A DNA stretch of 64,000 nucleotides from Thermoanaerobaculia bacterium (GCA_035490435.1 DATHEF010000004.1:216044-280043), one strand, 5' to 3'; positions 1,593-37,552 are shown, numbered from the stretch's first letter. Translations and numbers: made by a program. The notes: generated from the letters alone by a model not told the origin.

Positions 1593-2237
1593 ATGGCGCG
1601 AAAGGTTCTCGAGATCACGCTGAAGTCCCTGACCATTCAGCACAACGGCGAGATCACACGCCAGGACGGGCACAACCTCCTGACGGTGTCGCTGATCTAC
1701 CCGTGTCCAGGCAAGCCCACGATCACCACCGTCAAGCCGCTCAGCCTCGGCGAGGGGATGACGGTCAATTTCGACGCCGCGCCCTACACCTACGCCGACC
1801 GCATCCTCTTCAAGGAAGAGGTGATCGGTCCGACCCTGCTGGTGGCGCAACTGACCGACGTCGAGGTGCTCTCCAAATTCAACAAGTTCATGGCCGGCCT
1901 CTTCTCGACTGCCTTCTCCGCGGCCTGGAACCTCTTCGCGCCGGGCGGGGGGAACCTGCTCCTGGCGGCCGCCACGCACTCGGTCGCCGCCCTGCAGCTC
2001 GACACGCTGAAGACTACCGATGGGGACCGGCTCTATGTGATCGGACGCGCCTCGCTGCCGATCGACACCGCCCAGGCGCTCCCCGCGGGGACCGTGCCGC
2101 TGATGGTGCCTAGCGACGTCAAGCGCGACAAATTCGTGTTCGCTCCCGGCAGCAGTCAGCCGACCCGGAAAGAGCAGTTCATCCTGGCGGCCGGGCAGCA
2201 GAACGGATCGATCACTTTCGGAATTCGCGAGCTCTGA
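1593..2237 (+). CDS. hypothetical protein (214 aa), no recognisable domain
   Basis: Clean ORF with protein-like composition, followed 20 bp later by a membrane-protein gene. Local GC is visibly lower (about 58-60%) than the flanks. Confidence 0.6.
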   Translation: MARKVLEITLKSLTIQHNGEITRQDGHNLLTVSLIYPCPGKPTITTVKPLSLGEGMTVNFDAAPYTYADRILFKEEVIGPTLLVAQLTDVEVLSKFNKFMAGLFSTAFSAAWNLFAPGGGNLLLAAATHSVAALQLDTLKTTDGDRLYVIGRASLPIDTAQALPAGTVPLMVPSDVKRDKFVFAPGSSQPTRKEQFILAAGQQNGSITFGIREL

Positions 2238-2256
2238 TCACTCAAGGAGGATTGCC

Positions 2257-3291
2257 ATGCTAGGTTCCATGGTTCTGGATGTCGGTATCGGCTTGGTTCT
2301 GATCTATTTCCTGCTGAGCCTGATCTGCTCGACGATCAACGAGGGTATCTCCAATTTGTTCGGCCTTCGGGCCGCGTCCCTCAAGGAAGGGCTGGATAAC
2401 CTGCTCGGGTCCGAGCTGGCGCAAGGTATCTTCGATCATCACCTCGTCAAAGGTCTGGTGCAGCAGGATGCGCTGCCCTGGAAGCGCCGGCCCTCTTACA
2501 TTCCAACCCGGACCTTCGTCATGGCGGCGCTCCACTCGCTGAACGGCCAGAATTTTCCCGCCACGGTCGACGAAGTCCGAGTGGCGGTTCAGAATGTCAA
2601 GGATGAGAATGTCCGGCGAGCTCTGCTGGCACTGATCGACGACGCCCGAGGTGATTTCAGCAAGATGAAAGACAACCTCGGAGTCTGGTTCGATCACTCC
2701 ATGGATCGGGTCTCCGGCTGGTATCGCAGAAAGATTCAGAGCTACATCCTCATCATCGCCATCTTCATCAGCTTCGGGCTGGGGGTGGATACACTCGCGC
2801 TCGTAAAGTTCCTGCGGGCGGATTCGACGCTGAGGGAATCTCTGGTTGCAGTGGCGAAGGCCGAGGTCGAGAAGCCCGCCGCGCCAACAGTGACTGACGG
2901 TGCCGCTCCCAGTCCGGGCGCGCAACCGAACGCGGCCCAGAACCTCAAGAAGGATCTGGTGAATCTCGAGACGCTCCAGACGCAGTTTTTCAATCTCAAC
3001 ATCCCGCGCTACCCGCTTTATTACTTCAAGGACCGTGTGAAGGATTGGCAGGCCGGCCAGCCGCAAGGACAGGTCGCGACGGTCGCCGCCCGAACTCCAC
3101 CCTCGCCAGGTTTCGTGGCGGTCTTGTGGTTCTGGTTCTGGCAGCACTCCCTGGGCTTCTTCATCACTTCCGTAGCTCTTTCACTGGGCTCTCCATTCTG
3201 GTTCGATCTGCTCAACAAGCTTGTGAGCCTGCGCTCGACAGGCCAGAAGCCGAAACCAGAAGCCGCGGCGATCCAGACGGTCCAGGGATAG
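2257..3291 (+). CDS. hypothetical integral membrane protein (344 aa)
   Basis: N-terminal TM ([19 protein letters not shown]), central TM ([18 protein letters not shown]) and C-terminal Trp-rich TM ([23 protein letters not shown]). RBS aaggagg upstream. Lower GC (about 55%). Confidence 0.6.
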
Positions 3292-8196: not shown

Positions 8197-10263
8197 ATGC
8201 GCAAGCTGTTCATTTGTTTCGCGATGCTGACGGCGGCCCTCCCCGCGCTGGCGGCGGACCCGCATCCGTTCAACGTCCATGATCTGGTGACGATGCAGCG
8301 GATCTCGGACCCTCAGCCCTCGCCGCGGGGGGACCGGGTCGCCTTCGTCCTCCGCTCCACGGATCTCGACGCCAACCGGGGTCGCACCGATCTCTGGATC
8401 GTCAATGCCGACGGCGGCGGCCTCGCCCGGCTGACCACCGATCCGGCGTCGGACGACACCCCCCGCTGGGCGCCGGACGGCCAGAGCCTCTACTTCCTCT
8501 CCAGCCGCTCCAAGTCGAGCCAGGTCTGGAAGTTGCCGGTCGCTGGGGACACCGTGGGCGACCCCGTGCAGGTGACCCATCTCCCTCTCGACGTCGCGAA
8601 CCTCACCCTCTCGCCCGACGGCTCGCGGCTCGCCTTCAGTCTCGAGGTCTACGCCGACTGCCCGACGGTCGCCTGCACGAAAGAGCGGCTGGACCAGAAG
8701 GAGAAGGAGAAGTCCTCCGGCCAGCTCTTCCAGGGGGATGCCGGCTTCTTCCGCCACTGGGACGTCTGGTCCTCGGGGCTGCGCAACCATATTTTCACCC
8801 TGCCGGCCTCTGGCGAGGGCGATCCGGTCGACCTCTCGCGCGGCATGAACGCCGACGCCCCCTCGCGCCCCTTTGGCGGCTCCGAGGAGTTCACCTTCTC
8901 GCCCGACGGCCGCACGTTGGTCTTCACCGCCCGCCTCGGCGGCCGCGAGGAGCCGTGGTCGACCAACTTCGACCTCTACAGCGTGCCGGCGGACGGCTCG
9001 CAGGCGCCCCGGAACCTGACGCAGGCCAACCTCGCCTGGGACACCCAGCCGGTCTTCTCGCCGGACGGCAAGACCCTGGCCTACCTCGCAATGTCCCGCG
9101 CGGGCTTCGAGGCCGACCGCTTCCGCATCCGGCTGCGCGACCTCGCCACCGGCCGCGAGCGGGTGCTCGCGGAGGCCTGGGACCGCTCGCCGGCCGGGGT
9201 CTTCTTCTCGGCGGACGGCCGCACTCTCTATGCCTCGGCCGGTGACGTGGGGCAGACGCCGCTCTTCGCCATCGACGTCGCGACCGGCAAGGTGACCAAG
9301 CTGGTGTCCCAGGGGCACGTCCATGATCCGAAGCTCGCCGGCGACCGCATCGTCTACGGCCTCGATACCCTGATCTCGCCGGTGGAGCTGTACACGGTGG
9401 GGCGCGACGGCACGGGGGTGTCCCAGCTCACCCACGTCAACCAGGAGGCGCTCGCCGCCATCCGCATGGGGGAGCCGGAGCAGTTCTCCTTCAAGGGGGC
9501 CAACGGCGATACGGTCTGGGGGTGGGTGACCAAGCCGGTCGGCTTCCAGGCGGGCAGGAAGTACCCGCTGGCCTTCCTCATCCACGGCGGCCCCCAGGGA
9601 TCGTTCAGCAACGAGTTCCACTACCGCTGGAACCCGCAGCCCTACGCGGGGGCGGGGTACGCGGTGATCACCATCGACTTCCACGGCTCGACCGGCTACG
9701 GCCAGGCGTTCACCGACGCCATCACCCGGGACTGGGGGGGCAAGCCGCTGGTCGACCTTCAGAAGGGGCTCGCCGCCGCCCTCCAGCGCTACCCCTGGAT
9801 CGACGGCACGCGGGCGTGCGCTCTCGGCGCCTCCTACGGCGGCTTCATGATCAACTGGATCCAGGGCAACTGGCCCAACGCCTTCAAGTGCCTGGTCGAC
9901 CATGACGGCACCTTCGATCAGCGGATGATGTATTACGGCACCGAGGAGCTCTGGTTCCCGGAGTGGGAGATGGGCGGCACCTACTGGCAGCACCCGCAGC
10001 TCTACGAGAAGAACAACCCGGTGAATTTCGTCGACCGCTGGAAGACCCCGATGCTGGTCGTCCACAGCGCCCTCGACTACCGCATCCCGGTCACCCAGGG
10101 GATCGCCGCCTTCAACGTCCTCCAGCGCAAGGGGATCGCCAGCCAGTTCCTCTACTTTCCCGACGAGAACCACTGGATCCTCAAGCCGGCCAACAGCATC
10201 CTCTGGCACGACACCGTGCTGACCTGGCTCGACCGCTGGCTGGGGCCCGGGGGAAGCAAGTAA
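8197..10263 (+). CDS. S9 family serine peptidase (prolyl oligopeptidase / acylaminoacyl-peptidase-like) with N-terminal TolB-like beta-propeller
   Basis: Signal peptide MRKLFICFAMLTAALPALA; propeller repeats (SPDG...); GASYGGFM nucleophile elbow (GxSxGG); D and H of the catalytic triad lie in the C-terminal alpha/beta hydrolase fold. Confidence 0.85.
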   Translation: MRKLFICFAMLTAALPALAADPHPFNVHDLVTMQRISDPQPSPRGDRVAFVLRSTDLDANRGRTDLWIVNADGGGLARLTTDPASDDTPRWAPDGQSLYFLSSRSKSSQVWKLPVAGDTVGDPVQVTHLPLDVANLTLSPDGSRLAFSLEVYADCPTVACTKERLDQKEKEKSSGQLFQGDAGFFRHWDVWSSGLRNHIFTLPASGEGDPVDLSRGMNADAPSRPFGGSEEFTFSPDGRTLVFTARLGGREEPWSTNFDLYSVPADGSQAPRNLTQANLAWDTQPVFSPDGKTLAYLAMSRAGFEADRFRIRLRDLATGRERVLAEAWDRSPAGVFFSADGRTLYASAGDVGQTPLFAIDVATGKVTKLVSQGHVHDPKLAGDRIVYGLDTLISPVELYTVGRDGTGVSQLTHVNQEALAAIRMGEPEQFSFKGANGDTVWGWVTKPVGFQAGRKYPLAFLIHGGPQGSFSNEFHYRWNPQPYAGAGYAVITIDFHGSTGYGQAFTDAITRDWGGKPLVDLQKGLAAALQRYPWIDGTRACALGASYGGFMINWIQGNWPNAFKCLVDHDGTFDQRMMYYGTEELWFPEWEMGGTYWQHPQLYEKNNPVNFVDRWKTPMLVVHSALDYRIPVTQGIAAFNVLQRKGIASQFLYFPDENHWILKPANSILWHDTVLTWLDRWLGPGGSK

Positions 10264-10289
10264 ACGATTTTTTGTTCCTTTTGAGCTCT

Positions 10290-10336
10290 GAGGGCGGCCC
10301 GCGGGCCGCCCTCAACGTTTGCAGGTTTTTTTGTTG
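10290..10336 (+). terminator. putative rho-independent terminator of the S9 peptidase gene
   Basis: GC hairpin gagggcggcccgcgggccgccctc followed by a T-rich run (gtttgcaggtttttttgttg). Confidence 0.5.
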
Positions 10337-10525
10337 AGCATTGGGGATAGTGATCCGCAAACCCCCGAAAAACGGGCTCTCGAAAAAAAGTTCGGGATTT
10401 TTGTCCCGGAAAACCCCTCAGCGGAAACGAAGGTATTAGAGGCGATATGAACAGCCGTCCCGTTCACTCGACGTGCAGGGGAGGGTCGACCCATCGCCGG
10501 CTTCACCGAAGGAGGAGGATGAGCC

Positions 10526-11956
10526 ATGTTTCCGACGACCACCATGCCCATGCCCGGCGCCTTGCGACTGAGGGCCCTGCACCCCCTGATCGAGGGGGAC
10601 GGCTCCTGCAGCCTGATCTACGACCTGGAGCGCGCGGCGGTGGTGGAGGTGCCCGAGGACCTGCAGTTCCACGTCGCCCCGGCGCTGGAGACCGGGGATC
10701 TCGACGAGGCGCTGCTCGGCTGGCTCGTCAACGAGGACCTGCTGACCAGCGAGGGGGGCGCGGGCTGGAGCGTGACCGCCGGTGCCGTCCAGCTCCCCGA
10801 GGGGGGGTGGTGGAGCCTGGGGGCGATCTACCGGATCGACGACGAGCTCCACGTCCGCATCGACCAGGCGCGCGAGGACGCCGCGCTGGAGGTGGTGGGG
10901 TTCGTGTTCAAGCAGGGCTTCGGCGCCAGCCGGGTCAAGCTGCACCTGAACTGGGGGGGCGCCTTCCCGGGGACGGCGCTGCTCGAGCGCATCGTCGTCG
11001 AGTCCTCCCGCCTGGCCGCGCTGCTGGGGCAGGAGATCGCCTTCGAGCTGACGCTCGCCGCCCGCGAGGTGACCCCCGTCCGCGCGGCATTCCTCGCCGG
11101 CTACGGTTTCCAGGTGCGGCTGCTCTGCGGCAGCTACCCGGCTCCCTACGCCGGCTTCTACGCCGATCTCCGCGACCGGGATGGGGACAATAATGGCGGG
11201 ACGTGGGAGGCGGAGGCGCCGGTGCGCCTGCTGCACGAGGCCCTGAAGGGGCGGCTGACCGTCCACTGCGTGCTCGACCGCGGCCGTCTCCTCGACCTCT
11301 GGGAATGGGCCAAGCGGACCGGCCTCCGCCACCTGGACGCGACGGTGCTCGAGGACGCCGCGTTCGGCGACGGCGCGCCGCGCCCCGGCCGCCTGCGCGA
11401 GGTCCGCAACGACCTGCTGTCGGTCTGCGACGAGATGGCCGACGAGCTCGGCGGCCAGCGCCTGCCGGTCGAGTTCAAGCCGCTGACCCGGATCGTCGAC
11501 CGCCTGATGCGTAGCGAGCCGCTCGGCCAGGCCTACGGCGAGCGCGGCAGCTTCGCCAGCAGTTTCGCCGGGATGATGATGCCGATGGCCGACGCCTGCC
11601 CGCGCTCCTTCTTCGACAGCCTCGACCTGCGCTCGCTGCCGGACCTCCCGGACGGGCTGGGGGAGGAGCCGCGGGGGGATCTGGAGATGGAGACCTCCTG
11701 TCTCGGGTGCTGGGCCCGGCACGCGTGCGGTCACAGCACCTACGTGACCTCCCCCCAGGACGACGACGCGCGGGGAGCCGCGGAGGACCGCTGCCCGCTC
11801 TGGCGGACCGAGGTCGAGGTGGCGCTCCGCTTCTACCACCGCCTCGCCCACATGGACCCCATCCAGGTCCGCCAGTTCTTCGATCAATCCCTCCGCGAGC
11901 CGGCCCCGCCGCTCGGCCGCCGCGAGGACCTCGGACACCTGAGGATGCCGTTCTGA
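10526..11956 (+). CDS. hypothetical protein with C-terminal CxxCx5C...C cysteine cluster (SPASM/twitch-like), lacking a radical-SAM CxxxCxxC motif
   Basis: Strong RBS ggaggagga; C-terminal SCLGCWARHACGHSTY...EDRCPLW; no CxxxCxxC anywhere in the N-terminal half. Composition is protein-like, whereas the overlapping ORF-track calls are R/A/G-rich. Confidence 0.65.
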   Translation: MFPTTTMPMPGALRLRALHPLIEGDGSCSLIYDLERAAVVEVPEDLQFHVAPALETGDLDEALLGWLVNEDLLTSEGGAGWSVTAGAVQLPEGGWWSLGAIYRIDDELHVRIDQAREDAALEVVGFVFKQGFGASRVKLHLNWGGAFPGTALLERIVVESSRLAALLGQEIAFELTLAAREVTPVRAAFLAGYGFQVRLLCGSYPAPYAGFYADLRDRDGDNNGGTWEAEAPVRLLHEALKGRLTVHCVLDRGRLLDLWEWAKRTGLRHLDATVLEDAAFGDGAPRPGRLREVRNDLLSVCDEMADELGGQRLPVEFKPLTRIVDRLMRSEPLGQAYGERGSFASSFAGMMMPMADACPRSFFDSLDLRSLPDLPDGLGEEPRGDLEMETSCLGCWARHACGHSTYVTSPQDDDARGAAEDRCPLWRTEVEVALRFYHRLAHMDPIQVRQFFDQSLREPAPPLGRREDLGHLRMPF

Positions 11957-12054
11957 GCCCCGCTCCGGCATCTCTCGCCCCATCTCCCCTCGGGTAGAGG
12001 CGTCCCCCTCCGGGTCGCCTCTGCCCACCCTTTTCTGATTTACTCCGGTCCATC

Positions 12055-12654
12055 GTGCCGTCTAACGCCTGGCTCCGTTTCCGCTATTCGTTCTGGGCTC
12101 CCCACTACGACCGGGTGACCAAGTTCCCGGATGAGCGGCGGCGCTCGATCGAGCTGCTCGACCTGCGCCCGGGGGAGCGGCTGGTGGTGATCGGCTGCGG
12201 CACCGGCGCCGACCTCCCGTTGATCCCTTTGGGGATCGAGGTGCTGGCGGTGGATCTCACTCCGGCGATGATCCGCCAGGCGATGGCTCACGCGCGGCCC
12301 GGGATCGAGTTCCGGGTGATGGACGGCATGGCGCTCGACCTGCCGGACGGCTCGTTCGACGCGGCGATCCTCCACATGGTGCTGGAGGTGATCCCGGATC
12401 CGGCCCGCTGTCTCGCCGAGGCCGCGCGGGTGCTCCGCGTGGGGGGGCGGCTGGCCGTCTTCGACAAGTTCCTCCCCGAGGGGGAGCGCCCCGGCCCGCT
12501 CCGCCGCGCCGGGCTCGCCCTGCTCGACTTCGTCTTCACCAGCACCAACCGGCGGATGGGGGAGATCCTCGCCCGCTCCGGGGCCCCCTTCGCGGTCGAG
12601 CGCGACGACCCTTCCGTCGGCTCCTACCGCCACCTGATCCTGCGCCGCGTGTAG
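12055..12654 (+). CDS. class I SAM-dependent methyltransferase
   Basis: VVIGCGTGADL (motif I GxGxG); Methyltransf_11/25-like; GTG start inferred from the ORF track. Confidence 0.75.
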   Translation: MPSNAWLRFRYSFWAPHYDRVTKFPDERRRSIELLDLRPGERLVVIGCGTGADLPLIPLGIEVLAVDLTPAMIRQAMAHARPGIEFRVMDGMALDLPDGSFDAAILHMVLEVIPDPARCLAEAARVLRVGGRLAVFDKFLPEGERPGPLRRAGLALLDFVFTSTNRRMGEILARSGAPFAVERDDPSVGSYRHLILRRV

Positions 12655-12679
12655 GCGCTTCGCGTGTAGGATTACCCCC

Positions 12680-13066
12680 ATGGAAAACGACGCGCGGTTC
12701 CGGGGAGCGGGTGGGACGCCGGGGGGGCTGGGAGAGTTCCTGATCGGGCTCGCCATGGCCGCCGGCGGCGCCTACCTGCTGACCCAGCAGGTCACGGTGA
12801 CGAGCGGCTACTGGAACGTCTGGGGGCACAACGCCTTCGGCCTGACGCTGCTCCCCCTCCTCTTCGGCGTCGGCCTGCTGTTCTTCAACGGCCGCTCGGT
12901 GCTCGGCTGGCTGCTGCTGGTCGCCGGCGCGGCCATCCTCCTCGCCGGCATCCTGATGAACCTCCAGATCTACTTCCAGAGCACCAGCCTGTTCAACACC
13001 CTGATCATGCTGGTCCTGCTCTTCGGAGGCCTCGGGCTGATCGCCCGCTCGCTGCGATCGCATTGA
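12680..13066 (+). CDS. small integral membrane protein (128 aa, 3-4 TM)
   Basis: Hydrophobic segments LIGLAMAAGGAYLL, LTLLPLLFGVGLLFF, WLLLVAGAAILLAGILM, LIMLVLLFGGLGLI; 25 bp downstream of the methyltransferase gene. Confidence 0.55.
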   Translation: MENDARFRGAGGTPGGLGEFLIGLAMAAGGAYLLTQQVTVTSGYWNVWGHNAFGLTLLPLLFGVGLLFFNGRSVLGWLLLVAGAAILLAGILMNLQIYFQSTSLFNTLIMLVLLFGGLGLIARSLRSH

Positions 13067-14437: not shown

Positions 14438-15295
14438 ATGCTTCGCTTTGTTGTAGCTTTGCAGGCTGAGGCCCACCCGCTGGTGGGCCGGTTCGGAATG
14501 GCGGCCGTGAGCGAGGCGCCGTTCCCGGTCTATCGGAGCGAGGAGGCCTGGCTGATCGTCTCCGGTCACGGCAAGGCGGCGTCGGCCGCGGCCACCGCCT
14601 ATCTTCACCTGATGGCCGGCGGCGCCCTGGGCCGCGCCTGGCTCAACGTCGGCCTCGGCGGCCACAGCCAGCGGAAGCTCGGCGAGGGGGTGCTGGCGCA
14701 CAAGATCTCCGACGCGGCGAGCGGCGCCTCCTGGTACCCCCAACTGGTCATCGACAGCCCGGGCCCGACCGTCCCCGTCCTCTCCGTCGAGCGGGTGGAG
14801 GAGGAGTACGCGCCCCCCTGGGTCTACGAGTCCGAGGCGGCCGGCTTCTTCCCCACCGCCTGCCGGTTCTCGGTCGCCGAGCTGGTGCACGTCTACAAGG
14901 TGATCTCCGACAATCCGGACGCCACCCTCTCGCGGCGCATGTCGAGCCGGGCCGTCGAGGCGGCGATCGCCAGCAACCTGGACCGGATCGAGGCCTTCGC
15001 CCGCGGTCTCACGGATCTCGCGCGGGAATTGGAGGCGCTGGCCGCCGAGCCGCCGGGATACCCCGAGGCCCTGGAGCGCTGGTCCTTCACCGCCGCGCAG
15101 CAGCTCCGGCTGCGGCGGCTGCTGCGGCGGCTGGCGGCGCTCGATCCCGCGAGCTCGCGCGATCCGGCCTACCTGGAATCCCTGTTCGACGGCGCCCGCG
15201 CCGAGCGGGAGGTGCTGCGCTCGCTGGAAGCGCGGCTCGCCGTCATCCCCATCCGACTGCCCCCGCCAGGAGCCGCCGCCGATGATCTACGTTGA
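14438..15295 (+). CDS. purine nucleoside phosphorylase / MTA-SAH nucleosidase family protein (PNP_UDP_1-like) with C-terminal helical extension
   Basis: N-terminus MLRFVVALQAEAHPL...WLIVSGHGKAASAAATAYL matches the phosphorylase-I fold signature. The 3' end overlaps the next gene by 14 nt. Confidence 0.6.
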   Translation: MLRFVVALQAEAHPLVGRFGMAAVSEAPFPVYRSEEAWLIVSGHGKAASAAATAYLHLMAGGALGRAWLNVGLGGHSQRKLGEGVLAHKISDAASGASWYPQLVIDSPGPTVPVLSVERVEEEYAPPWVYESEAAGFFPTACRFSVAELVHVYKVISDNPDATLSRRMSSRAVEAAIASNLDRIEAFARGLTDLARELEALAAEPPGYPEALERWSFTAAQQLRLRRLLRRLAALDPASSRDPAYLESLFDGARAEREVLRSLEARLAVIPIRLPPPGAAADDLR

Positions 15296-16322
15296 GGAAG
15301 AGATCCTGGCGCATCCGCGCACGCTGCAGATCCAGAGCCGCTTCCCGGACGCCGAGGTCGTCCCCTGCTCGCGGTACAGCGAGATCTTCAACCGGCGGGC
15401 TCAGCACTTCCGGCTGCAGAAGCGCCGGCCGTCGCTGATCCTGGCGCGCAAGCACCGCAGCTTCGTGCAGGAGGCGCCGGCGGGGTTCGGCGTCAAGGGA
15501 GCGCGGAGCTTCACCTTCTCCCACATGCACAACTGCATCTACGACTGCCGGTACTGCTTCCTCCAGGGGATGTACCGGTCGGCCCACTACGTCGTCTTCA
15601 TCAACTACGAGGACTACCAGTGGGCGATCGAGGAGCGGCTGCGGTCGCTCCCCAACGGCTCTGCCTGGTTCTTCTCCGGTTACGACTGCGACAGCCTGGC
15701 GCTCGAGCCGGTGACCCGCTTCGCGGCGAGCTTCGTGCCCTTTTTCGCCCGCTTCCCGGCCGCGTTCCTCGAGCTGCGCACCAAGAGCACGCAGATCAAG
15801 TCGCTGCTCGACATGGAGGCGCCGCCGAACGTGATCGTGGCGTTCAGCTTCACGCCCGCGGAGGTGGCTGCGTCGGTGGAGCACCTGACCCCCTCGGTCG
15901 ACCGCCGTATCCGGGCAATGAAGAAGCTCCAGGAGCGCGGCTGGCGGCTGGGTCTCCGCTTCGACCCGCTGATCTACGACGAGGGCTTTCGCGAGCAGTA
16001 CCGGCGCCTGTACGAGCAGGTCTTTGGCGCCGTTCGCGTCGAGAGCCTCCACTCGGTGAGCCTCGGCCCGTTCCACCTGCCGGGGGGGCTGTTCAGGAAC
16101 ATGGCGCGGCTCTACCCGGAGAGCCCGCTGTTCGCCGCTCCCCTCGACGAGACGGGCGGCCAGGTGGGCTACCGGCGGGACCTGGAGGAGGAGATGATGG
16201 GGTTCTGCCGTGAGGAGCTGCTGCGCCACATTCCGCCGGAGATCTTCTGCCCGGGGTTGAGCGCCCTGCCGGCGGCCCATGCCGCGGAGGCGGCTTCGCC
16301 GCTCGGCGAAGCCGCGATGTAG
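15282..16322 (+). CDS. radical SAM protein, spore photoproduct lyase (SplB) family
   Basis: CIYDCRYCFLQG (CxxxCxxC) at the canonical SPL position; MIYVEEEILAHPRT N-terminus and overall SplB-like layout. Confidence 0.75.
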   Translation: MIYVEEEILAHPRTLQIQSRFPDAEVVPCSRYSEIFNRRAQHFRLQKRRPSLILARKHRSFVQEAPAGFGVKGARSFTFSHMHNCIYDCRYCFLQGMYRSAHYVVFINYEDYQWAIEERLRSLPNGSAWFFSGYDCDSLALEPVTRFAASFVPFFARFPAAFLELRTKSTQIKSLLDMEAPPNVIVAFSFTPAEVAASVEHLTPSVDRRIRAMKKLQERGWRLGLRFDPLIYDEGFREQYRRLYEQVFGAVRVESLHSVSLGPFHLPGGLFRNMARLYPESPLFAAPLDETGGQVGYRRDLEEEMMGFCREELLRHIPPEIFCPGLSALPAAHAAEAASPLGEAAM

Positions 16323-22334: not shown

Positions 22335-23017
22335 TCCCTCCGCTCCACCAGCCGGCAGTCCTCGATGCGGAACACCCGGTCCGCGAGCCCCACCACCTCG
22401 GGGCTGTGGGTGACCATCACCATGGTCTTGCCGGCTTGCCGGGTGAGGCGGTCGAGGAGGTCGAGCACCTGGAGGCCGGTTTCGAGGTCGAGATTGCCGG
22501 TCGGCTCGTCGGCCAGCACGAGCAGGGGATCGTGGGCCAGCGCCCGCGCCACCGCCACCCGCTGCTGCTCGCCGCCCGACAGCCGGTCCGGATAGCTGGA
22601 CGCCCGGTCCGCGATTCCCACTTCTTCGAGCAGCGCGAGCGCCGCCCGCCGCTGCTCGGGGCCGATGCGCCCCTTGAGCTCCATCGGCAGGAGCAGGTTC
22701 TCCTCGACGGTGAGGGTGGGGATGAGGTTGAAGAACTGGAAGACGAAGCCGATCCTGTCGCGGCGGAAGAGCGTCCGCTCGCGCTCGGAGAGAGAGGAGA
22801 TGGCGACGCCGTCGATCACCACCTCGCCGGAGCTGGGCTGGTCGATCCCGGAGAGCAGGTTGAGCAGCGTCGACTTCCCCGTGCCGCTGCGCCCGATCAG
22901 GACCGCGAACTCACCGCGCCCGATCGTGAGGTTGGCGTCGCACAGCACCATCCGCCGCCGGCTCCCCTCCAGGTAGTCCTTGGTGAGGTTCCGCAGCTCG
23001 ATGAGGGGGGCGGGCAT
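22331..23017 (-). CDS. ABC transporter ATP-binding protein (MacB/LolD-type)
   Basis: Walker [10 protein letters not shown], signature [15 protein letters not shown], Walker [14 protein letters not shown]. Confidence 0.9.
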
Positions 23018-23115
23018 GGCCCGGGGATGGTATCAGGCGAAGCGGGGGACCGGCTGGAGACGCCGTTGCTGGCCTGACGATCACGCGGGCTCAGATCTTC
23101 GAATAACGGCTGTCT

Positions 23116-23523
23116 TCAGAACTTCGCGCGGACGGCACTCACGAACTGAAGCAGATCGTCCAGATGATCTTTAATGATCTTCTTGACAATCGCCCCGTTG
23201 AGCCGTTCGTAACCGTGAACGATGATGTTCCGGAAGCCGACCATGTCCCGCAACGAAGCCGTGAGCTCGTGGGAGATCCAGCCATAACGGGCGAGGAGCT
23301 CGAAGAATTCACGGTTGTTGTGAGCCTCGCCCAAGCGATCGTCGGAAACGATATGGGCTGCCACGTCGAGAGCGGATTGGATTGCGATGTGCAGGGTATA
23401 CGCTGCGAAGCGAAGCTCGCGAAGATCGTCGGGAATAGCTTCGAGATGAACCAAGGTGCGCAGCTCTCCAACGCTGGTCTCGATGAGAACAAGTTTCTTA
23501 GCGACCAATTGATAATCCGTCAC
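23116..23523 (-). CDS. hepT: HepT (DUF86) nucleotidyltransferase-substrate-binding toxin
   Basis: Rx4HxY motif FRNIIVHGY; 135 aa; 4-bp overlap with the upstream MntA gene; locally AT-richer than the flanks. Confidence 0.8.
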   Translation of the reverse strand: MTDYQLVAKKLVLIETSVGELRTLVHLEAIPDDLRELRFAAYTLHIAIQSALDVAAHIVSDDRLGEAHNNREFFELLARYGWISHELTASLRDMVGFRNIIVHGYERLNGAIVKKIIKDHLDDLLQFVSAVRAKF

Positions 23524-23930
23524 CTCGGTTTCTCTCCCATTCTCCGGTACATCTTCAAATAGGGCTCCAGGTCCAGGAACTCGAATCGGGTCTTCACCTC
23601 GAAGCGGACACGTTTCGGCCGGTCCCGGTCTACGAGCAGCTTGCCGTCTCGGAGCACTCTGATAGTGAGATCCACCGGAGCGTAGTTGAGGACGACCACC
23701 TGAACGGGAACCCTGAGCAGGCTCTCGATCTCGCCTTCGAGTCGGAACCCCATTCCCTCCAGGGTGAGCGGAGGGTCCTCAAGGTAGAGAATGCCGATGT
23801 CCACATCGCTTTTTGGCCCCGCCGTCCCCCGAGCCACGCTGCCGAAGAGGTAGGCCGCGGCGATGCCTTCCCGCTCGGCGTTCGCGGCGAAGAATTCGCG
23901 GAGCCGTGCCTCGATCGCTTCAGGGTCCAT
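23520..23930 (-). CDS. mntA: MntA-type minimal nucleotidyltransferase antitoxin
   Basis: GSVARGTAGPKSDVDIG (GSx9-13DxD NTase motif). Confidence 0.8.
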   Translation of the reverse strand: MDPEAIEARLREFFAANAEREGIAAAYLFGSVARGTAGPKSDVDIGILYLEDPPLTLEGMGFRLEGEIESLLRVPVQVVVLNYAPVDLTIRVLRDGKLLVDRDRPKRVRFEVKTRFEFLDLEPYLKMYRRMGEKPR

Positions 23931-23950
23931 GACCCTAGTCTATAGGGATC

Positions 23951-25984
23951 TCAGAGGGGATGCCCCTCCACCAGCCTCGCCACCGCCGCGAGCAGCTCCG
24001 AGGCCTCCACAGGCTTGGCGACGTGCACCTGATAGCCCGCCTCCAAGGCGCGCCGGCGGTCCTCGGGGCGCGCGAGGGCGCTGACCGCGGCGGCGGGGAT
24101 GGCGCCCCCCTGGTCCGGCGGCAGGGCGCGCAGCCGGCGGACCAGCTCGTAGCCGTCCTCGCCCGGCATGCCGAGATCGCTCACCAGCACGTCCGGACGG
24201 CGGCGGCGGATCGCCTCCAGGGCCTCGGCCGCCGAGGCTACGGTCTCGACCTCGGCATCGCACTCCGTGAACACCCGTTCGAGGAGCTCGCGGGCGTCGT
24301 CCTGGTCGTCCACCACCAGCACCCGTACCCCCTTCAGCGTCACGCAGGCGTCATCGGCCGCGGCGGCGGAACCGGCGGCCGGCTGGCGGGCGGCAGCCTC
24401 TCCGGTCTGCTCGGGCGCGGTGTGCGGCAGGAGGATGGTAAAGGTCGCGCCCTTCCCCTCGCCGGGGCTCGTGGCGGTCACCGTGCCGCCGTGCAGCTCG
24501 ACGAACTGCTTGACGATCGCGAGCCCCAGCCCCAGGCCGCCGGACCTCCGCGTGATCGAGGCGTCCGCCTGCCGGAAACGGTCGAAGAGGTAGGGCGCGA
24601 ACGCCGGATCGAACCCCTGGCCGGTGTCGCTGACGCGGATCTCGACGCTGGCGGCCGCGCGCGCCAGCTCGACCCGCACCGTGCCTCCCGTAGGGGTGAA
24701 CTTGATCGCGTTCGACAGCAGGTTCCAGACCACTTGCCGCAGGCGGTCCGGATCGCCGGTGATGATGCCGTCCTCGCGGTCGATCGCTTCCACGATGCCG
24801 ATCCCCTTGGTTTCGGCGGCGAGCCGCACGGCTTCCGTGGCGCTTTCGACGACCGCGGCGAGATCGACCGCCTGCACCTCCAGGCGCATCTTGCCGGAGA
24901 TGATGCGGCTCATGTCGAGGAGGTCCGAGATCATCTGCGACTGGACGCGCGCGTTGCGCTCGATGACCTGGAGGCCCTGGTCGACCGCCTTGGGATCGTC
25001 CTTCTTCCTCTGCAGGATCTGCGTCCAGCCGAGAATGGCGTGGAGCGGCGTGCGTAGCTCGTGGGAGAGGGTGGCGACGAAATCGTCCTTGAGCCGGTTC
25101 GCCCGCTCGGCCTCGTTGCGCGCCGCCCGCTCGCTCTCCAGGAGCTGGAGCCGCTCCTCGGCGACCCGCACCCGGTCCGTGATGTCGGTGTTGATCGCCA
25201 CCGCGCCGATGACGCGGCCGTTGAGGAGAACCGGGGCCGAGGCGCCGCGGATGTGGACATCCTCGCCGGTCTCGGCGTTGCGGGCGATCACGTCCTCGAC
25301 CGCGACCTCACCGCGCAGAGCCTTGGCGAAGGAGAGCTCGTCCGGCGGCACGGGCCGTCCGTCGGTGCGGCGTATGTTGAACTTGGCTCCCAGCTCGCCG
25401 ATCCGCTCGCGGAGGTCGGCGAGCGAGGAGGCCCCGAGCTGCCGCAGGGCGTGGGCGTTGCACCGCGTGATCCCTTCAGGGGTGCCGACGTAGACGGCGT
25501 CGGGCATGCTCTCGATCACCGCGTCCAGCTCCGCCGCCCGCCGTTCGGCCACCTCCCAGGCATGGCGCAGCACCTCGGTGGCCTGCGTGCGCTCGTGGAT
25601 GTCGATGTGGAGGCCGGCCCACTCGCGGACGCCGCCGGCGCCGTCCGGAAGCGCCACGGCGCGGGAGACCATGTAGCGGTACTCGCCGTCGTGGCGGCGT
25701 ACCCGATGCTCCACTTCGTATCGAGTCCCCTGGCTGAGGGCCTGGAACCACGCTTCGCTTGTGGCGGCGCGGTCGTCCGGATGGACTGCGTCGAGCCACC
25801 CCCACCCTCGGAGCTCCTCGAAGCTCTGGCCGGTGAAGGCGCTCCAACCTGGCTGCACAGTCTCGAACTCGCCGCTCGCGGAGCGGTTCCAGACCATCGC
25901 CGCGATGGCCTCGACCAGGGTGCGGTAGCGCTCTTCGTTGTGAGGGAGGAGGCGAGGGTCGGCCGTGGAGGACCCGCTGATCAT
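23951..25984 (-). CDS. hybrid sensor histidine kinase (PAS/PAC - HisKA - HATPase_c - REC)
   Basis: H-box LSHELRTPL; N, G1/G2 boxes ([19 protein letters not shown]); C-terminal receiver [14 protein letters not shown]...D. Confidence 0.85.
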
Positions 25985-33743: not shown

Positions 33744-35186
33744 ATGAGAAGCGTTTTCTGGATCGTTCTGACACATGTCCTCTGGGCGTCCGCGGGGTTC
33801 GCGGCGGCGCCCGCGCCGGCCAAGCCCGCCGAACTGCCGCGCGGAACCCTGGTCGAGAAGGTGACCTGCGCCGGCGCTCCGGATCAGGCCTACGCCCTCT
33901 ATCTGCCGTCCAACTACACCCCGGACCGCCGCTGGCCGATCCTCTACGCCTTCGACGCCCGCGCGCAGGGCCGGCGGGTGGCCGAGCTCTTCCAGCAGGC
34001 CGCCGAGACCCATGGCTGGATCCTGGTCAGCTCCTGGAACACGGCGAGCGATGGGCCGGCGGAGCCCAACTTTACCGCCATGCACGCCCTGTGGGCCGAC
34101 ACCCACGCCCGCTTCGCCATCGACGACGCGCGCGTCTATGCCGCCGGCTACTCCGGCACCGTACGCTTCGCCTGCATCCTCGCCCTCACCGCGCCGGGGA
34201 CGATCGCCGGGATCATCGGCGCCGGCGCCGGCTTCCCCTTCGGATCGCCGCCGAAGAAGGACAACCCGTTCGCCTTCTTCGGCACGGTCGGCGACCGCGA
34301 TTTCAACTACTACGAGATGAACGACCTCGACGCGGCAATGAAGGCCCTGGCCCTCCCGCACCGCATCGAGCACTTCTCCGGCCTGCACGACTGGCCGCCG
34401 GCCGGTCTCGCCATGAAAGCGGTGGCCTGGATGGAGCTGCAGGCGATGAAGGCGGGCAAGCGGGAGAAGAGCCCCGCGCTTGTCGAGTCGGAATGGAACC
34501 GCGACCGCGAGCAGGCCCGGTCGCAGGCCGCCGCTCACCCCGCGGACGCGCTCCACACCTGGTCCGCGATGGCTGCCGACTACGCCGGGCTGCGCGACGT
34601 GGCCGAGGCCGAGCGCAAGGCCGCGGCCCTCGCCGCCTCGCCGGCCTGCCGGAAGGAGCTCCGCGAGCGCGACGAGCGGGACCGCCGCGACAAGGATCTC
34701 CTCGCCCGGGCGCCGGCGATCCTGGCGCGCGCCAATCCCGGCAACGAGCCGGTGACCGCGGCGCAGATCGCCGCCGAGCTGAAGATCCCGGAGCTCAAGG
34801 TACGCGCCGCCTCGGCCGACCCGGAGGAGAGCCTCTCCGCCAAGCGGATCCTCAACACCTACCTGGGGCAGACGATGTTCTACCAGCCGCAGTCATTCCT
34901 CGAAAAGAAGGAGTACGACCGCGCTGTCTTCATGATTTCAGTGGGCGCCGAGATCCGCCCCGAGGAGCCGGGCCCCTGGGTAGAGATCGCGGCCATCCAC
35001 GCCCGCAAGGGGAAAGCCGGCCGCAAGAAGGCCCTGGAAGCCCTGCGCACCGCGGCGGACAAGGGGCTCGCCGATCCCGCCGCCCTGGACCGGGAAGCCT
35101 TCAACGACCTGCGGCAGGACGAGGAGTTCCGGCGGATCGTGGCCCAGGTGATGGGGCGCAAGAGCGCCGGTCCACCGAATAGATAG
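33744..35186 (+). CDS. secreted alpha/beta-hydrolase (esterase) with C-terminal helical/TPR-like domain
   Basis: Signal peptide MRSVFWIVLTHVLWASAGFAAA; nucleophile elbow GYSGT; divergent from the hmuTUV-like operon, so a siderophore/heme-associated esterase is possible. Confidence 0.6.
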   Translation: MRSVFWIVLTHVLWASAGFAAAPAPAKPAELPRGTLVEKVTCAGAPDQAYALYLPSNYTPDRRWPILYAFDARAQGRRVAELFQQAAETHGWILVSSWNTASDGPAEPNFTAMHALWADTHARFAIDDARVYAAGYSGTVRFACILALTAPGTIAGIIGAGAGFPFGSPPKKDNPFAFFGTVGDRDFNYYEMNDLDAAMKALALPHRIEHFSGLHDWPPAGLAMKAVAWMELQAMKAGKREKSPALVESEWNRDREQARSQAAAHPADALHTWSAMAADYAGLRDVAEAERKAAALAASPACRKELRERDERDRRDKDLLARAPAILARANPGNEPVTAAQIAAELKIPELKVRAASADPEESLSAKRILNTYLGQTMFYQPQSFLEKKEYDRAVFMISVGAEIRPEEPGPWVEIAAIHARKGKAGRKKALEALRTAADKGLADPAALDREAFNDLRQDEEFRRIVAQVMGRKSAGPPNR

Positions 35187-35271
35187 AAGCCTTCGCGATA
35201 GGACCGTTCATGCCAGCGCCTGAACCGAGAGCGCAGCCGATATTATTCTCTGTTCGGGAGATAATACGGAC

Positions 35272-35511
35272 ATGAAGACCCTGTCCCTGAGACTTCCGGA
35301 CGCCTTGGATGACCAGCTTGAATCGCTGGCTGGCAGACTGCGGACCACCAAGACGGCGGTCATTCGTGAAGCGATATCCGCCTATCTCAACGAGAACAGC
35401 CCTCCGGCCCGAGAGTCCTTTGCGTCGCTGGCTCAAGATCTCTCCGGATGGATTGAGGGCCCCGAGGATCTCTCGGTGAATCCAGACTATCTCGCTGGCT
35501 ACGGCAAGTGA
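35272..35511 (+). CDS. ribbon-helix-helix (CopG/VapB-like) antitoxin
   Basis: 79 aa, MKTLSLRLPDALDDQLESLAGRLRTTKTAVIREAISAYL RHH fold. Confidence 0.7.
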   Translation: MKTLSLRLPDALDDQLESLAGRLRTTKTAVIREAISAYLNENSPPARESFASLAQDLSGWIEGPEDLSVNPDYLAGYGK

Positions 35512-35524
35512 GGAGGAAACCCTC

Positions 35525-35653
35525 ATCGCTTGCCTGGTGCGAATGTCAGAGTTGCACCCGGACGCGGTTCTGCTGACCCTCGATTCCGATTTCAGGATCT
35601 ACCGCAGGAATCGTCGGTCCATGATTCCGACATTGATGCCCACGATCCGCTGA
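35525..35653 (+). pseudogene. remnant 3' fragment of a PIN-domain (VapC-like) toxin gene
   Basis: Frame +1 relative to the antitoxin reads ...LHPDAVLLTLDSDFRIYRRN..., resembling a PIN C-terminus. It has no start codon and no N-terminal catalytic acidic residues. Confidence 0.35.
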
Positions 35654-35715
35654 CGAGGAACTCCGGCGCGCCCGGTCTCGGATGGCCGGGCGCAAGAAAC
35701 CGGGTGAGCCGCCCG

Positions 35716-35892
35716 TCAGCAGAGAGTCGAATTGCAGAGACAGGTATCGAAACAGGCCGTGTTGGCGCCCGACCCGCATATCCAGGGGCAGGTGTCCGAG
35801 CGCCCGCCGCCGGCCTCGCGCAGGCTGGTCTTCCCGAGAGACCGCAGGGTCTCGCGGCTGAGCTCGAGCTTCTTCGGGAGTCTCTTTTTCAT
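35716..35892 (-). CDS. small Cys-rich precursor-like peptide A (58 aa) with double-glycine-type leader
   Basis: MKKRLPKKLELSRETLRSLGKTSLREAGGG|RSDTCPWICGSGANTACFDTCLCNSTLC; SD GGAGGA 9 nt upstream of the ATG. The leader and about 40 bp of upstream sequence are duplicated at 36848..36905. Not in the ORF track. Confidence 0.7.
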   Translation of the reverse strand: MKKRLPKKLELSRETLRSLGKTSLREAGGGRSDTCPWICGSGANTACFDTCLCNSTLC

Positions 35893-35961
35893 GGGGATGG
35901 TTTCCTCCTGCCCTGAACTCTACAACGGAAGTAGAATCCCGTCCCGATAAGGAGAGATCCC

Positions 35962-36411
35962 ATGCCCAAAGTTTCCCACGAACAGGCCCTTGCCGAGATG
36001 GAGAGCGTGCTCGGCATGGTCCGCGCGAACGCTGACCGGTTGCCCCCACTCGCCCTTCAGGTCGCGGACAAGCTCGAGGCCATCATCGCCGAGTTCAAGG
36101 CCGCGAGGATTGAGCAGCAGGATCTGCTCGCAAAGCGGATCTTGAAGACCGAGGAGATCATGTCCCTGATTGCCCAGGGCAACCGTGCCGCGCGCGATCT
36201 GCGGGCCTTCGTCATTCTCGCATTGGGTACGCGGCACCCGTTGCTCAAGCAGTTTGGAATCGGCATCCGCGGCCGCCGCCGCCGCAAGGCCCGGAAGGTT
36301 TCCGTGCCCACCGCCAGACCCTCCGCGGCCCGCCTGGAACCCGTCGAGCCCGCCCTGGAACCGTTCGCAGGAAGTCCGGACGATCTCCAGGCCGCCGCCG
36401 AAGGCGCGTAG
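35962..36411 (+). CDS. hypothetical helical protein (149 aa)
   Basis: RBS aaggagag; protein-like composition; lies between the two leader-peptide genes and directly upstream of the 21-bp tandem repeat block. Confidence 0.45.
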   Translation: MPKVSHEQALAEMESVLGMVRANADRLPPLALQVADKLEAIIAEFKAARIEQQDLLAKRILKTEEIMSLIAQGNRAARDLRAFVILALGTRHPLLKQFGIGIRGRRRRKARKVSVPTARPSAARLEPVEPALEPFAGSPDDLQAAAEGA

Positions 36412-36530
36412 AACGCGCCGGAGCCTCTCCGGGATGTCATGGAACCCGTCCGGCCCTGCTCGTAACGTTTTGAGCGCTGCCGACCCGAAAGGGGGGATGG
36501 CCGCCGAAATAGGGCAGCCGCCGGAGAGAA

Positions 36531-36762
36531 TGGGGGAGGCGTCCGGAGACTTGGGGGAATCGATTTTCGGAATTGGGGAACCGCCTCCGCGAGTTGGGGA
36601 AGCGGTCTCGCCAATGGGGGAGACGCCCGGAGCCTCAGGGGAAAGGGCCGCCCGAATCGGGGAGGCGTCTCCGCGCTGCGGGGAACCGTCCCGCGACTCC
36701 GGGGAGACGGCGAAACGAAAAGGGCGATCGTCTCCGTGCCTGGGGGAACCGTTCCCGGAAGA
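36531..36762. repeat. tandem array of about 10 x 21-22 bp direct repeats (consensus TGGGGGArnCG..CTCCG...)
   Basis: Units start at about 36531, 36552, 36574, 36595, 36615, 36638, 36659, 36680, 36701 and 36741. The 21-bp period equals two helical turns and seven codons. Confidence 0.8.
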
Positions 36763-36847
36763 CCCATGAGAAGCCGGTCAGCCGTCTACTCGCACGCCGC
36801 AGGGTCTCGCGGCTGAGGTCGAGCTTCCTCGGGAGTCTCTTCTTCAT
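36635..36847 (-). CDS. leader-peptide paralog B (70 aa): conserved MKKRLPRKLDLSRETLR leader fused to an Arg/Pro-rich heptad-repeat tail
   Basis: The leader DNA and upstream promoter/RBS are nearly identical to peptide A. The sequence diverges after ETLR and the 3' part is encoded by the tandem repeats (RFPQARR RSPFSFR RLPGVAG RFPAARR RLPDSGG). Confidence 0.5.
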   Translation of the reverse strand: MKKRLPRKLDLSRETLRRASRRLTGFSWVFRERFPQARRRSPFSFRRLPGVAGRFPAARRRLPDSGGPFP

Positions 36848-36907
36848 GGGGTGCTCCTCCTTTGCCCTAACTCTACACCGGACCGGACTCCAGAGCTGAG
36901 CCTTGGG

Positions 36908-37309
36908 CTAGGCGGGGACGGTGACGACTTCCAGTCCATCAATCGACTGGAAGTGTCTGGCGTTGTGGGTTACCAGAGGAAGGTGGTGTCGGACCGCGGT
37001 CGCAGCGATCCAAGCGTCTGCCAGGGAGATCGGGCGTCCCCTTCGCGACATGATTCGGGCCCACTCCCAACTCATCGCGTCATCGTAGGGGAGCACGGCG
37101 TAATTTCTGAGATGCTCCCGGAGCGATTGGACCCGATGTTCTCCCCAATTGCGGGCGAAAGGCCAGCGGTACAGCTCGGCGACTGACATGAATGAGAGGC
37201 ATAGAAGCCTTCCCTTGAGGTGCTCCCAGTAGTGCGGAGCCAGGGAATGCCCCTTCAGGAGGTAGGAAACTACGGATGTATCGACGACGAGACCTTCCAC
37301 CCTCCTCAA
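36908..37309 (-). CDS. vapC: PIN-domain toxin (VapC family)
   Basis: VVDTSVVSYLL N-terminus (first catalytic Asp), ...LPLVTHNARHFQ C-terminus; 4-bp overlap with the upstream antitoxin gene. Confidence 0.75.
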   Translation of the reverse strand: MRRVEGLVVDTSVVSYLLKGHSLAPHYWEHLKGRLLCLSFMSVAELYRWPFARNWGEHRVQSLREHLRNYAVLPYDDAMSWEWARIMSRRGRPISLADAWIAATAVRHHLPLVTHNARHFQSIDGLEVVTVPA

Positions 37310-37512
37310 TCCCGCTCCTGCCGCCAGCGAACGAGTTCCTCCTCGAATCCATCCTGAAGCTCTTCCGTGGGCCAGCCCCCGACGACCTCCTCAAGACGCT
37401 CGACCGGGCGAACGTTCTGCATCTTGGCCAGCTCCTCCAGAGTGGGGCCGGACCAGAACTCACCCGGGATTACGCCACGGCCTTTCGGGTCTTTCCTATC
37501 GTGGACGGCCAT
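37306..37512 (-). CDS. type II antitoxin partner of VapC (68 aa)
   Basis: Small acidic protein translationally coupled to the PIN toxin. Confidence 0.6.
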   Translation of the reverse strand: MAVHDRKDPKGRGVIPGEFWSGPTLEELAKMQNVRPVERLEEVVGGWPTEELQDGFEEELVRWRQERD

Positions 37513-37552
37513 CGTTTACCTCCATGGCAAGTGTAGCAGGCTGTTGGCCGAC

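Follow-up and report, generated by a model that had tools for sequence, protein, structure and literature searches.

In a 64,000-nucleotide stretch of a Thermoanaerobaculia bacterium genome (GCA_035490435.1, DATHEF010000004.1:216044-280043; hereafter the window), one gene, which we call X, encodes a 476-aa protein with a cysteine motif of the auxiliary-cluster type at its C-terminus. Our results suggested that X is most likely a pseudo-radical-S-adenosylmethionine (rSAM)/SPASM protein, specific to the Acidobacteria and only loosely linked to the methyltransferase gene beside it. The best explanation of the data is probably that X is a non-catalytic pseudo-maturase which binds or senses something. 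The gene and its parts are as follows.

10526-11956, + strand: X, 476 aa, ATG start; degenerate (pseudo) rSAM/SPASM peptide-maturase homologue
10547-10753, + strand: X residues 8-76, N-terminal domain (N-domain; from conservation, the ratio of nonsynonymous to synonymous substitution rates (dN/dS) and the predicted model)
10823-11515, + strand: X residues 100-330, degenerate partial (beta/alpha)6 barrel (from alignment, AF2 model and Foldseek)
11516-11689, + strand: X residues 331-388, remnant of the first half of SPASM (from alignment, model confidence and dN/dS)
11699-11794, + strand: X residues 392-423, four-cysteine site (invariant columns; ligand set of auxiliary cluster II, AuxII)

No Pfam model matched X at E ≤ 1, including Radical_SAM (PF04055) and SPASM (PF13186). 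The SPASM domain hidden Markov model (HMM; PF13186/TIGR04085) did not match the whole protein or its C-terminal 118 aa even at E ≤ 10. In NCBIfam only the C-terminal part of the QhpD model matched, at 15 bits (cutoff 453), and phmmer found no sequence match in the PDB. X has at least 274 homologues, all annotated as unnamed "hypothetical proteins", and the nearest public contig (L035) encodes a copy of 99% identity. When a profile of the X family was searched exhaustively against 1.8 billion representatives, 232 proteins were obtained, and the matches at E ~1e-11 to 1e-6 were genuine Radical_SAM + SPASM proteins aligned to X residues ~117-445. As the curated Pfam HMMs were silent, the homology of X to rSAM enzymes was visible only through the family profile. 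An earlier note on this DNA, made from the sequence alone, had guessed at a degenerate maturase-like protein with a SPASM-type auxiliary motif and had proposed a Pfam SPASM/Radical_SAM check. The guess was right, and it was the family profile, not the Pfam check, that brought the homology out.

The closer active enzymes in this set (P0160, P0188, P0197, P0199, P0218, P0221) carry CNxxCxYC and CxxCWARYLCGGGC. The best NCBIfam scores of the nearest active relatives were to the nif11-type, QhpD, PapB and SCIFF thioether-forming maturase models, all below cutoffs. A Foldseek search with the X model against the PDB gave CteB (5WHY/5WGG), TigE, anSME and ChlB as top matches (E 1e-5 to 1e-3). A profile built from the degenerate members only matched a single PDB protein, CteB, at the CxxCWAxxxC...C segment and the next helix (E 5e-7), which aligns the four-cysteine site of X to CDSCWAKFYC...GC of CteB. 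By these alignments, X is a full-length homologue of the thioether-type peptide maturases that join a recognition element for peptides that are made on the ribosome and modified after translation (RiPPs; the element is termed RRE) to rSAM and SPASM domains. X has in common with the CteB/SCIFF, PapB, QhpD and nif11-type maturases (5WGG/5WHY; TIGR03974, NF047865, TIGR03906, TIGR04064) a three-part architecture of N-terminal recognition domain, partial TIM barrel and SPASM C-terminus, and with CteB-type maturases also the fold and the CxxCWARxxC...C signature with the following helix. Unlike them, X is without CxxxCxxC, the GGE motif and the ligands of auxiliary cluster I (AuxI), its N-domain is one helix shorter, and no homologue of the precursor peptides of its sister clade lies next to it. 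A naming precedent exists in TIGR04347, a "pseudo-SAM/SPASM protein", that is, a SPASM-bearing rSAM homologue called "pseudo-SAM". It was compared by name only and belongs to another lineage; the model matched the AhbC/NirJ-like region of P0255 and did not match X. In the literature on pseudo- or degenerate rSAM proteins and on the X clade, nothing relevant was found.

The losses and the retained site were read from a joint alignment of X, degenerate members and active relatives (36 sequences, identity down to 16%), and conservation was computed over 164 full-length degenerate members. In rSAM enzymes, CxxxCxxC follows beta-1 and holds the SAM-binding [4Fe-4S] cluster, and GGE follows beta-2 and touches the amino group of SAM. 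In the rSAM loop, C-NMAC-TYC-F of the active enzymes is replaced by W-SLGA-IYR-I in X (WSLGAIYRI-DDELH), and CxxxCxxC is absent from X and from all 164 full-length members. The GGE motif, HFGSGEPL in the active enzymes, is HLNWGGAFP in X (LHLNWGGAFPG), with Glu changed to Ala, and the position of this motif (GGEPLL in active enzymes) is not conserved within the X family. The AuxI ligands in the first half of SPASM are also gone: CGAG...GD.YPC of the active enzymes corresponds to YGERG followed by variable sequence, and the AuxI ligand at +4 (GGGC) is changed to GHST. X has nine cysteines (28, 201, 248, 301, 358, 392, 395, 401, 423). C358 is only 10% conserved in the family, while C392, C395, C401 and C423 are the only invariant columns of the 36-sequence alignment and are at least 98% conserved in the 164 members. 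Conserved to this degree, the cysteine motif is not a chance occurrence; loss of the cluster in orthologs was what the earlier note had named as evidence against its idea. The four residues lie in the C-terminal stretch ...ETSCLGCWARHACGHSTY...EDRCPLWRTE, giving C392-x2-C395-x5-C401...C423; the same stretch can be written ...SCLGCWARHACGHSTY...RCPLW, and the CxxCx5C...C motif without CxxxCxxC was thus present as described from the sequence. As judged by alignment, X has lost the rSAM cluster ligands, the GGE SAM motif and every AuxI ligand, and keeps exactly the AuxII set of four cysteines.

In SPASM proteins of the AhbD/SuiB/anSME type, CxxCx5C and a distal Cys are the AuxII ligands, and the Cys at +4 (x3C) belongs to AuxI (PMC10452713). 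The other AuxI ligands lie upstream, in Cx9-15Gx4C. The [4Fe-4S] electron paramagnetic resonance signal persists in an AhbD variant whose rSAM and AuxI cysteines were mutated and only AuxII was left (PMC10452713). Most AhbDs of non-methanogenic archaea also seem, by sequence analysis, to have the AuxII ligands alone; as in X, their AuxI cysteines are lost and the CxxCx5C...C set is kept (PMC10452713). Unlike X, whose catalytic cluster is lost too, these AuxII-only AhbDs retain the rSAM cluster, and the prediction for them is that they are active as heme synthases. Twitch domains (BtrN, MoaA) resemble X in having a single auxiliary cluster site C-terminal to an rSAM-type barrel (PMC9012708), but the site left in X is the second one (AuxII), and the rSAM cluster is missing. 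Because twitch domains keep the other, AuxI-type site, X is not twitch-like, contrary to the earlier description; it holds the opposite half. The C-terminus of X is, by its ligand pattern, an AuxII-only half-SPASM. It would bind one [4Fe-4S] cluster, with Zn also possible.

The AF2 model of X had a pLDDT (per-residue confidence score) of 76 and a pTM (global fold score) of 0.78. It was computed from an alignment including distant and active relatives, which was used in place of a shallow alignment of close relatives (pLDDT 59). Residues 100-330 were predicted as alternating strands and helices (pLDDT 84-98 except for two short surface loops), and this part of the model is a degenerate, partial (beta/alpha)6 TIM-barrel fold of the rSAM type. 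Residues 333-388, exactly at the position of the AuxI hairpin, were predicted to be disordered (pLDDT < 50); residues 331-388 are variable and without a conserved Cys. A confident helix pair follows at the C-terminus. The tail beyond it, residues 457-476 (window 11894-11953; ...RREDLGHL(R/K)MPF), is strongly conserved in the Thermoanaerobaculia copies and predicted disordered, with D468 and F476 invariant in alignment A1.

The N-domain was modelled at residues 10-75 as four short strands and two helices (pLDDT 87-97). Its position is that of the peptide-recognition (RRE) domain in CteB-type maturases, and it can be aligned to CteB residues 15-85, with the loss of one helix, but only in the profile that includes active enzymes. 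The canonical RRE (PqqD-like) is a winged-helix domain of three strands and three helices, N-terminal to the maturase core. The N-domain alone gave no Pfam match and no PDB match by profile hmmsearch. We call it "RRE-derived" with moderate confidence, by positional homology. A metagenomic protein of 212 aa (P0195) has an X-type N-domain (residues 1-76) followed by an HD-domain-like LLHDIGK...HHGK; this may be a real fusion or a chimeric assembly.

The degenerate proteins formed one clade in a neighbour-joining tree, and the sister group consisted of active enzymes sharing the N-domain pattern R.R...P....G.C...YD.ER, which is consistent with a single loss of the rSAM site. The closest active relatives, P0188, P0199 and P0218 (matching the X profile at E 1e-41 to 1e-24), each come from the second gene in a cassette of an 81-89-aa precursor, an rSAM/SPASM protein and a second rSAM/SPASM protein. 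The precursor has a weak match to leaders of the NHLP clan and ends ...(V/I)LCGGGGGC(P/G)G.... Three cassettes were located as follows.

L067, 6295-9386: precursor and two tandem rSAM/SPASM maturases
L070, 2421-5516: precursor and two tandem rSAM/SPASM maturases
L072, 243-3458: precursor and two tandem rSAM/SPASM maturases

All curated NCBIfam models scored below their cutoffs for the cassette, so it may be an undescribed RiPP class. The paired cassettes (loci L067-L073) share the YDxER N-domain with X. In contrast to X, which has none of these, they have complete rSAM and seven-Cys SPASM motifs, a partner rSAM protein and a precursor directly upstream. No homologue of the sister-clade NHLP/CGGGGGC precursors, the only precursor type tested, was found by tblastn in the window or at X loci, so the suggested co-occurrence with leader-type peptides was not borne out for this type. 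The intergenic region between the S9 peptidase gene and X is conserved at the DNA level, but no open reading frame (ORF) in it was conserved between loci; a 36-aa ORF of L003 was not conserved elsewhere. For the nearest active relatives and the more distant degenerate members, most contigs were too short for the context to be informative.

The distribution of X was examined in a genome scan with one genome per GTDB species. All of the 62 X loci were from Acidobacteriota metagenome-assembled genomes; where these had a finer label, it was Thermoanaerobaculia or Holophagales. The X ORF is intact in about 60 species, and the degenerate family diverges to 27% identity. In the window, X has the following neighbours.

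8197-10263, + strand: S9 peptidase (prolyl-oligopeptidase family, secreted, PD40 propeller repeats; Pfam)
12055-12654, + strand: 199-aa class I SAM-dependent methyltransferase, GTG start (Pfam Methyltransf_11)
12680-13066, + strand: 128-aa protein with four predicted transmembrane (TM) segments and no family, ATG start (from sequence)

Selection was compared using a simple Nei-Gojobori estimator. Conservation was highest in the N-domain (mean identity to X 0.83, dN/dS 0.13), followed by the barrel (0.61 and 0.40), and lowest in residues 331-388 (0.37 and 0.60); dN/dS was 0.29 for the Cys/helix region and 0.36 for X overall, and only comparisons between these values are meaningful because the bias in G+C at third codon positions (GC3) inflates the absolute ones. 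By the same estimator the neighbours gave 0.28 (S9 peptidase), 0.20 (methyltransferase), 0.39 (M48 peptidase) and 0.24 (TM protein). The value for X is comparable to this range of 0.20-0.39, and X is therefore a maintained gene whose N-domain is the most constrained.

Four species (L062-L065) have the N-domain alone, as an ORF of ~100 aa between the S9 peptidase and methyltransferase genes. There is no room for a barrel remnant at these loci, and the barrel and the Cys site have been completely deleted. Two of these ORFs were called from upstream starts (L062 3633-3992, 119 aa; L064 6899-7291, 130 aa), and the stand-alone ORFs end in a short tail, ...TKAPC. Several short representatives from the profile search look N-domain-only too. 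That the N-domain alone outlasts the rest argues that the core function lies in it. Two other loci had irregular X matches. In L026 the match is truncated at 361 aa, and in L059 (7001-8953) it is in two pieces ~300 nt apart. These may be single-genome copies of X with a frameshift, an interruption or an insertion, through assembly error or ongoing decay.

X also has its own upstream signals.

10289-10314, + strand: GC-rich 11-bp stem-loop after the S9 peptidase stop (fold, centroid hairpin)
10398-10450, + strand: conserved X-specific cis element, probable promoter/operator (invariant blocks across loci)
10510-10519, + strand: Shine-Dalgarno sequence AGGAGGAGGA, ending 6 nt before the X ATG

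The cis element reads TTTTTGTCCCGGAAAA-N-TCAGCGGAAACGAAGGTATTAGAGGCGATATG and lies ~75-125 nt upstream of the X start. Its consensus across loci is TTTGTCCCGAAAA ... CAGCGG(A/T)AAC ... TAGAGGCGAAA, and the blocks do not vary between loci even though the X proteins there share just 60-80% identity. The element is unique in the window. Among 13 exact matches in metagenomes, 12 lie 75-105 nt upstream of an X homologue; the 13th, inside a gene of an unrelated low-GC contig, is a chance match. The unit TTTGTCCCGA is tandemly duplicated in L009, L025, L055 and L058. The reading of the upstream region as an RNA element was rejected, with no Rfam match, no supported structure by RNAalifold and no compensatory pairs. 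Since the hairpins were inconsistent between loci, the region was treated as a promoter/operator at the DNA level. A sigma-70 or extracytoplasmic-function-type promoter was also rejected, since the scanner found none and the spacings do not fit. From its conservation and position, the element is probably the promoter/operator of X itself.

The fold of the stem-loop after the S9 peptidase gene had a z of -2.8. Other loci show different GC-rich palindromes at this place, several directly followed by TTTT. Where the earlier note placed a terminator upstream of X, the stem-loop is terminator-like, but the U-run begins 13 nt after the stem, so that a simple terminator scanner did not call it. The element and the hairpin together suggested that X is transcriptionally separate from the S9 peptidase. 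An A/T-rich stretch precedes X in a window of 65-75% G+C. The Shine-Dalgarno sequence, noted before as a strong ribosome-binding site, is kept as GGAGGA in homologous loci.

These observations can be put together as follows. X would descend from the second enzyme of a paired rSAM/SPASM RiPP maturase system, whose closest active relatives would act on peptides with an NHLP leader and a CGGGGGC core. With the ligands of CxxxCxxC, GGE and AuxI lost, X is not expected to be capable of canonical reductive SAM cleavage. The RRE-derived domain of ~75 aa at the N-terminus, kept under purifying selection, would bind a peptide or protein partner, and the (beta/alpha)6 barrel, also under purifying selection, would be kept as a scaffold. 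The Cys4 site, the equivalent of the AuxII [4Fe-4S] site, may serve as a structural or redox-sensing element, and X would be expressed from its own conserved promoter/operator region.

Several points weigh against this reading. The binding of a cluster, whether Fe-S or Zn, and the lack of SAM binding are both deduced from sequence only. The constraint on the barrel (dN/dS 0.40) suggested that it may do more than serve as a scaffold, for example in ligand binding. C28 and C201 are also conserved (96% and 92% of the 164 members). The extreme GC3 bias distorts dS, and the neighbour-joining tree is without support values. The hhalign comparison of the N-domain with canonical maturase N-terminal domains was weak (E 5.6e-4, probability 30%; reversed control 0.41). 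Finally, the linkage of X to a kinase and a regulator, described below, was seen in only two related genomes.

X paralogues outside the main context were found at three loci (L039, L053, L054). Directly downstream of the paralogue, two of them (L039 6953-10571; L054 6974-10539) encode an MHYT-domain HisKA_3 histidine kinase and then a NarL/GerE-type response regulator. These two paralogues are 43-45% identical to X of the window, and their upstream flanks differ between the two genomes. This arrangement is a hint of a sensing role. In a wider proposal, which we think rather unlikely as it stands, the X family would be a class of Fe-S-based sensors or adaptors recruited from a RiPP maturase. 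AuxII would report redox or iron status and the N-domain would signal to a partner, which for the paralogue would be the MHYT kinase/NarL pair and for the main copy an envelope-linked partner (S9 peptidase, PmtA-like methyltransferase).

The methyltransferase gene bears on two other explanations of X. Its product matched Pfam Methyltransf_11 (E 2e-21), in agreement with its first description as a SAM methyltransferase. Its best PDB match was 8YS9, Rt-PmtA of Rubellimicrobium thermophilum (E 1.9e-20, residues 10-197). The active-site residues of Rt-PmtA are Tyr10, Ser120 and His147 (PMC11446283). In the alignment Tyr10 is kept as Y11, Ser120 corresponds to Glu111 and His147 to Lys138. The 199-aa protein thus resembles the R-type phospholipid N-methyltransferase PmtA in length, in a near full-length alignment and in the conserved N-terminal Tyr segment, but differs in having Glu and Lys at the Ser120 and His147 equivalents. 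The NCBIfam PmtA model (NF045882) gave 37 bits against a cutoff of 390. This score and the replacement of Ser and His make the substrate uncertain. By sequence the protein is PmtA-like and may methylate lipid head groups, with a changed specificity. Among solved structures it stands nearest to a phospholipid N-methyltransferase, not to a RiPP tailoring enzyme, and nothing ties it to peptide maturation.

Could X still be an enzyme? It might use non-canonical chemistry, with the AuxII-type cluster, possibly together with C28, C201 or further residues, placed in the barrel and a peptide or small molecule being modified, possibly in the same pathway as the methyltransferase. Non-canonical rSAM-like enzymes such as Dph2 and ThiC exist, and the purifying selection on the barrel, the conservation of C28 and C201 and the position of the methyltransferase directly downstream of X in 39 of 57 informative loci fit such an enzyme. 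However, no three conserved cysteines lie near the top of the barrel, the GGE motif is lost, and C28 and C201 go back to active relatives in which CxxxCxxC is complete as well. The four N-domain-only species deleted the barrel and the Cys site and retained the S9 peptidase and methyltransferase genes. With a methyltransferase that resembles a lipid N-methyltransferase and no sister-clade precursor homologue in the window, we consider a surviving enzymatic activity unlikely.

The earlier note had also proposed a single operon or system of X, the methyltransferase and the small membrane protein; as a maturase-like modification/export system, this is quite unlikely. The three ORFs are indeed on the + strand at the coordinates given there, with gaps of 98 nt (X to methyltransferase) and 25 nt (methyltransferase to TM gene), the scanner detected no terminator in the 98-nt gap, and even the stand-alone N-domain ORF still lies 77-115 nt before the methyltransferase gene. 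Against this, the neighbourhood counts, made by tblastn of the window proteins against all loci, gave a looser picture. The gap between X and the directly downstream methyltransferase is 62-230 nt, never short enough for translational coupling; inserted genes displace the methyltransferase in 8 of 57 loci (an opposite-strand gene in L003), and it is absent within 2-7 kb of X in 10 of 57 and from all three paralogue contexts. The TM gene, whose protein had been read as 3-4-TM, has four hydrophobic segments and no significant family in Pfam or NCBIfam, is variable: it follows the methyltransferase at some loci and is missing from many. The co-occurrence check suggested in the note gave direct adjacency to X in 39 of 57 loci for the methyltransferase.

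The steadiest neighbour is instead the S9 peptidase. In 55 of 59 informative loci its gene lies directly upstream of X in the same orientation, some of them with an X protein of no more than 36-48% identity. Only the peptidase, not X, carries a signal peptide, so direct cooperation is not obvious. The block M48 peptidase, S9 peptidase, X, methyltransferase, TM, CitMHS, 285-aa protein and SPL-like (spore photoproduct lyase family) rSAM is syntenic in the class, and because this whole ~10-kb region is kept, adjacency says little about function. X is less conserved than the other genes of the block, the methyltransferase and TM genes among them, with identities across loci of 43-80% (X), 64-82% (S9 peptidase) and 73-90% (methyltransferase). 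With variable adjacency, general synteny and a methyltransferase whose nearest solved relative is PmtA, the two downstream genes, for the methyltransferase and the 4-TM protein, are best seen as neighbours that are conserved, not as demonstrated partners.

That X is a relic without a function of its own, or with a function in the N-domain only and a barrel and Cys site not yet deleted, is unlikely as well: X does evolve faster than its neighbours, residues 331-388 are nearly unconstrained, four species retain only the N-domain and the L026 and L059 matches are truncated or split, but the four cysteines are conserved in a strongly divergent family, the dN/dS of the barrel and of the Cys region lie within the range of the neighbour genes, and full-length ORFs, paralogues included, are kept in most sampled species-level genomes across two classes.

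As a probable non-catalytic pseudo-maturase, X bears on a very large family, rSAM/SPASM, in which the role of AuxII is described as unclear (PMC9012708). The X clade appears to have discarded the catalytic cluster and AuxI yet kept AuxII and a recognition-type domain under selection, and would thus offer a natural minimal system for an isolated AuxII site. It would also show clearly how an enzyme becomes a pseudoenzyme, the visible end point being the N-domain alone. Genome mining in which SPASM-like Cys motifs are taken as a sign of RiPP maturases should leave the X family out of its biosynthetic count. The paired rSAM maturases with LCGGGGGC-ending NHLP precursors are, in their turn, an apparently undescribed active system.

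Further observations were made elsewhere in the window. No tRNA gene or Rfam family was found anywhere in it. At 14438-16322, the 285-aa protein, which has no Pfam match, overlaps the start of the 346-aa SPL-like rSAM, which carries CIYDCRYC. Many homologous loci keep the two genes together, in some cases right behind the methyltransferase gene. The G+C content falls to ~0.60 at 2001-3000, 23001-24000 and 35001-40000, against a background of 0.67-0.75.

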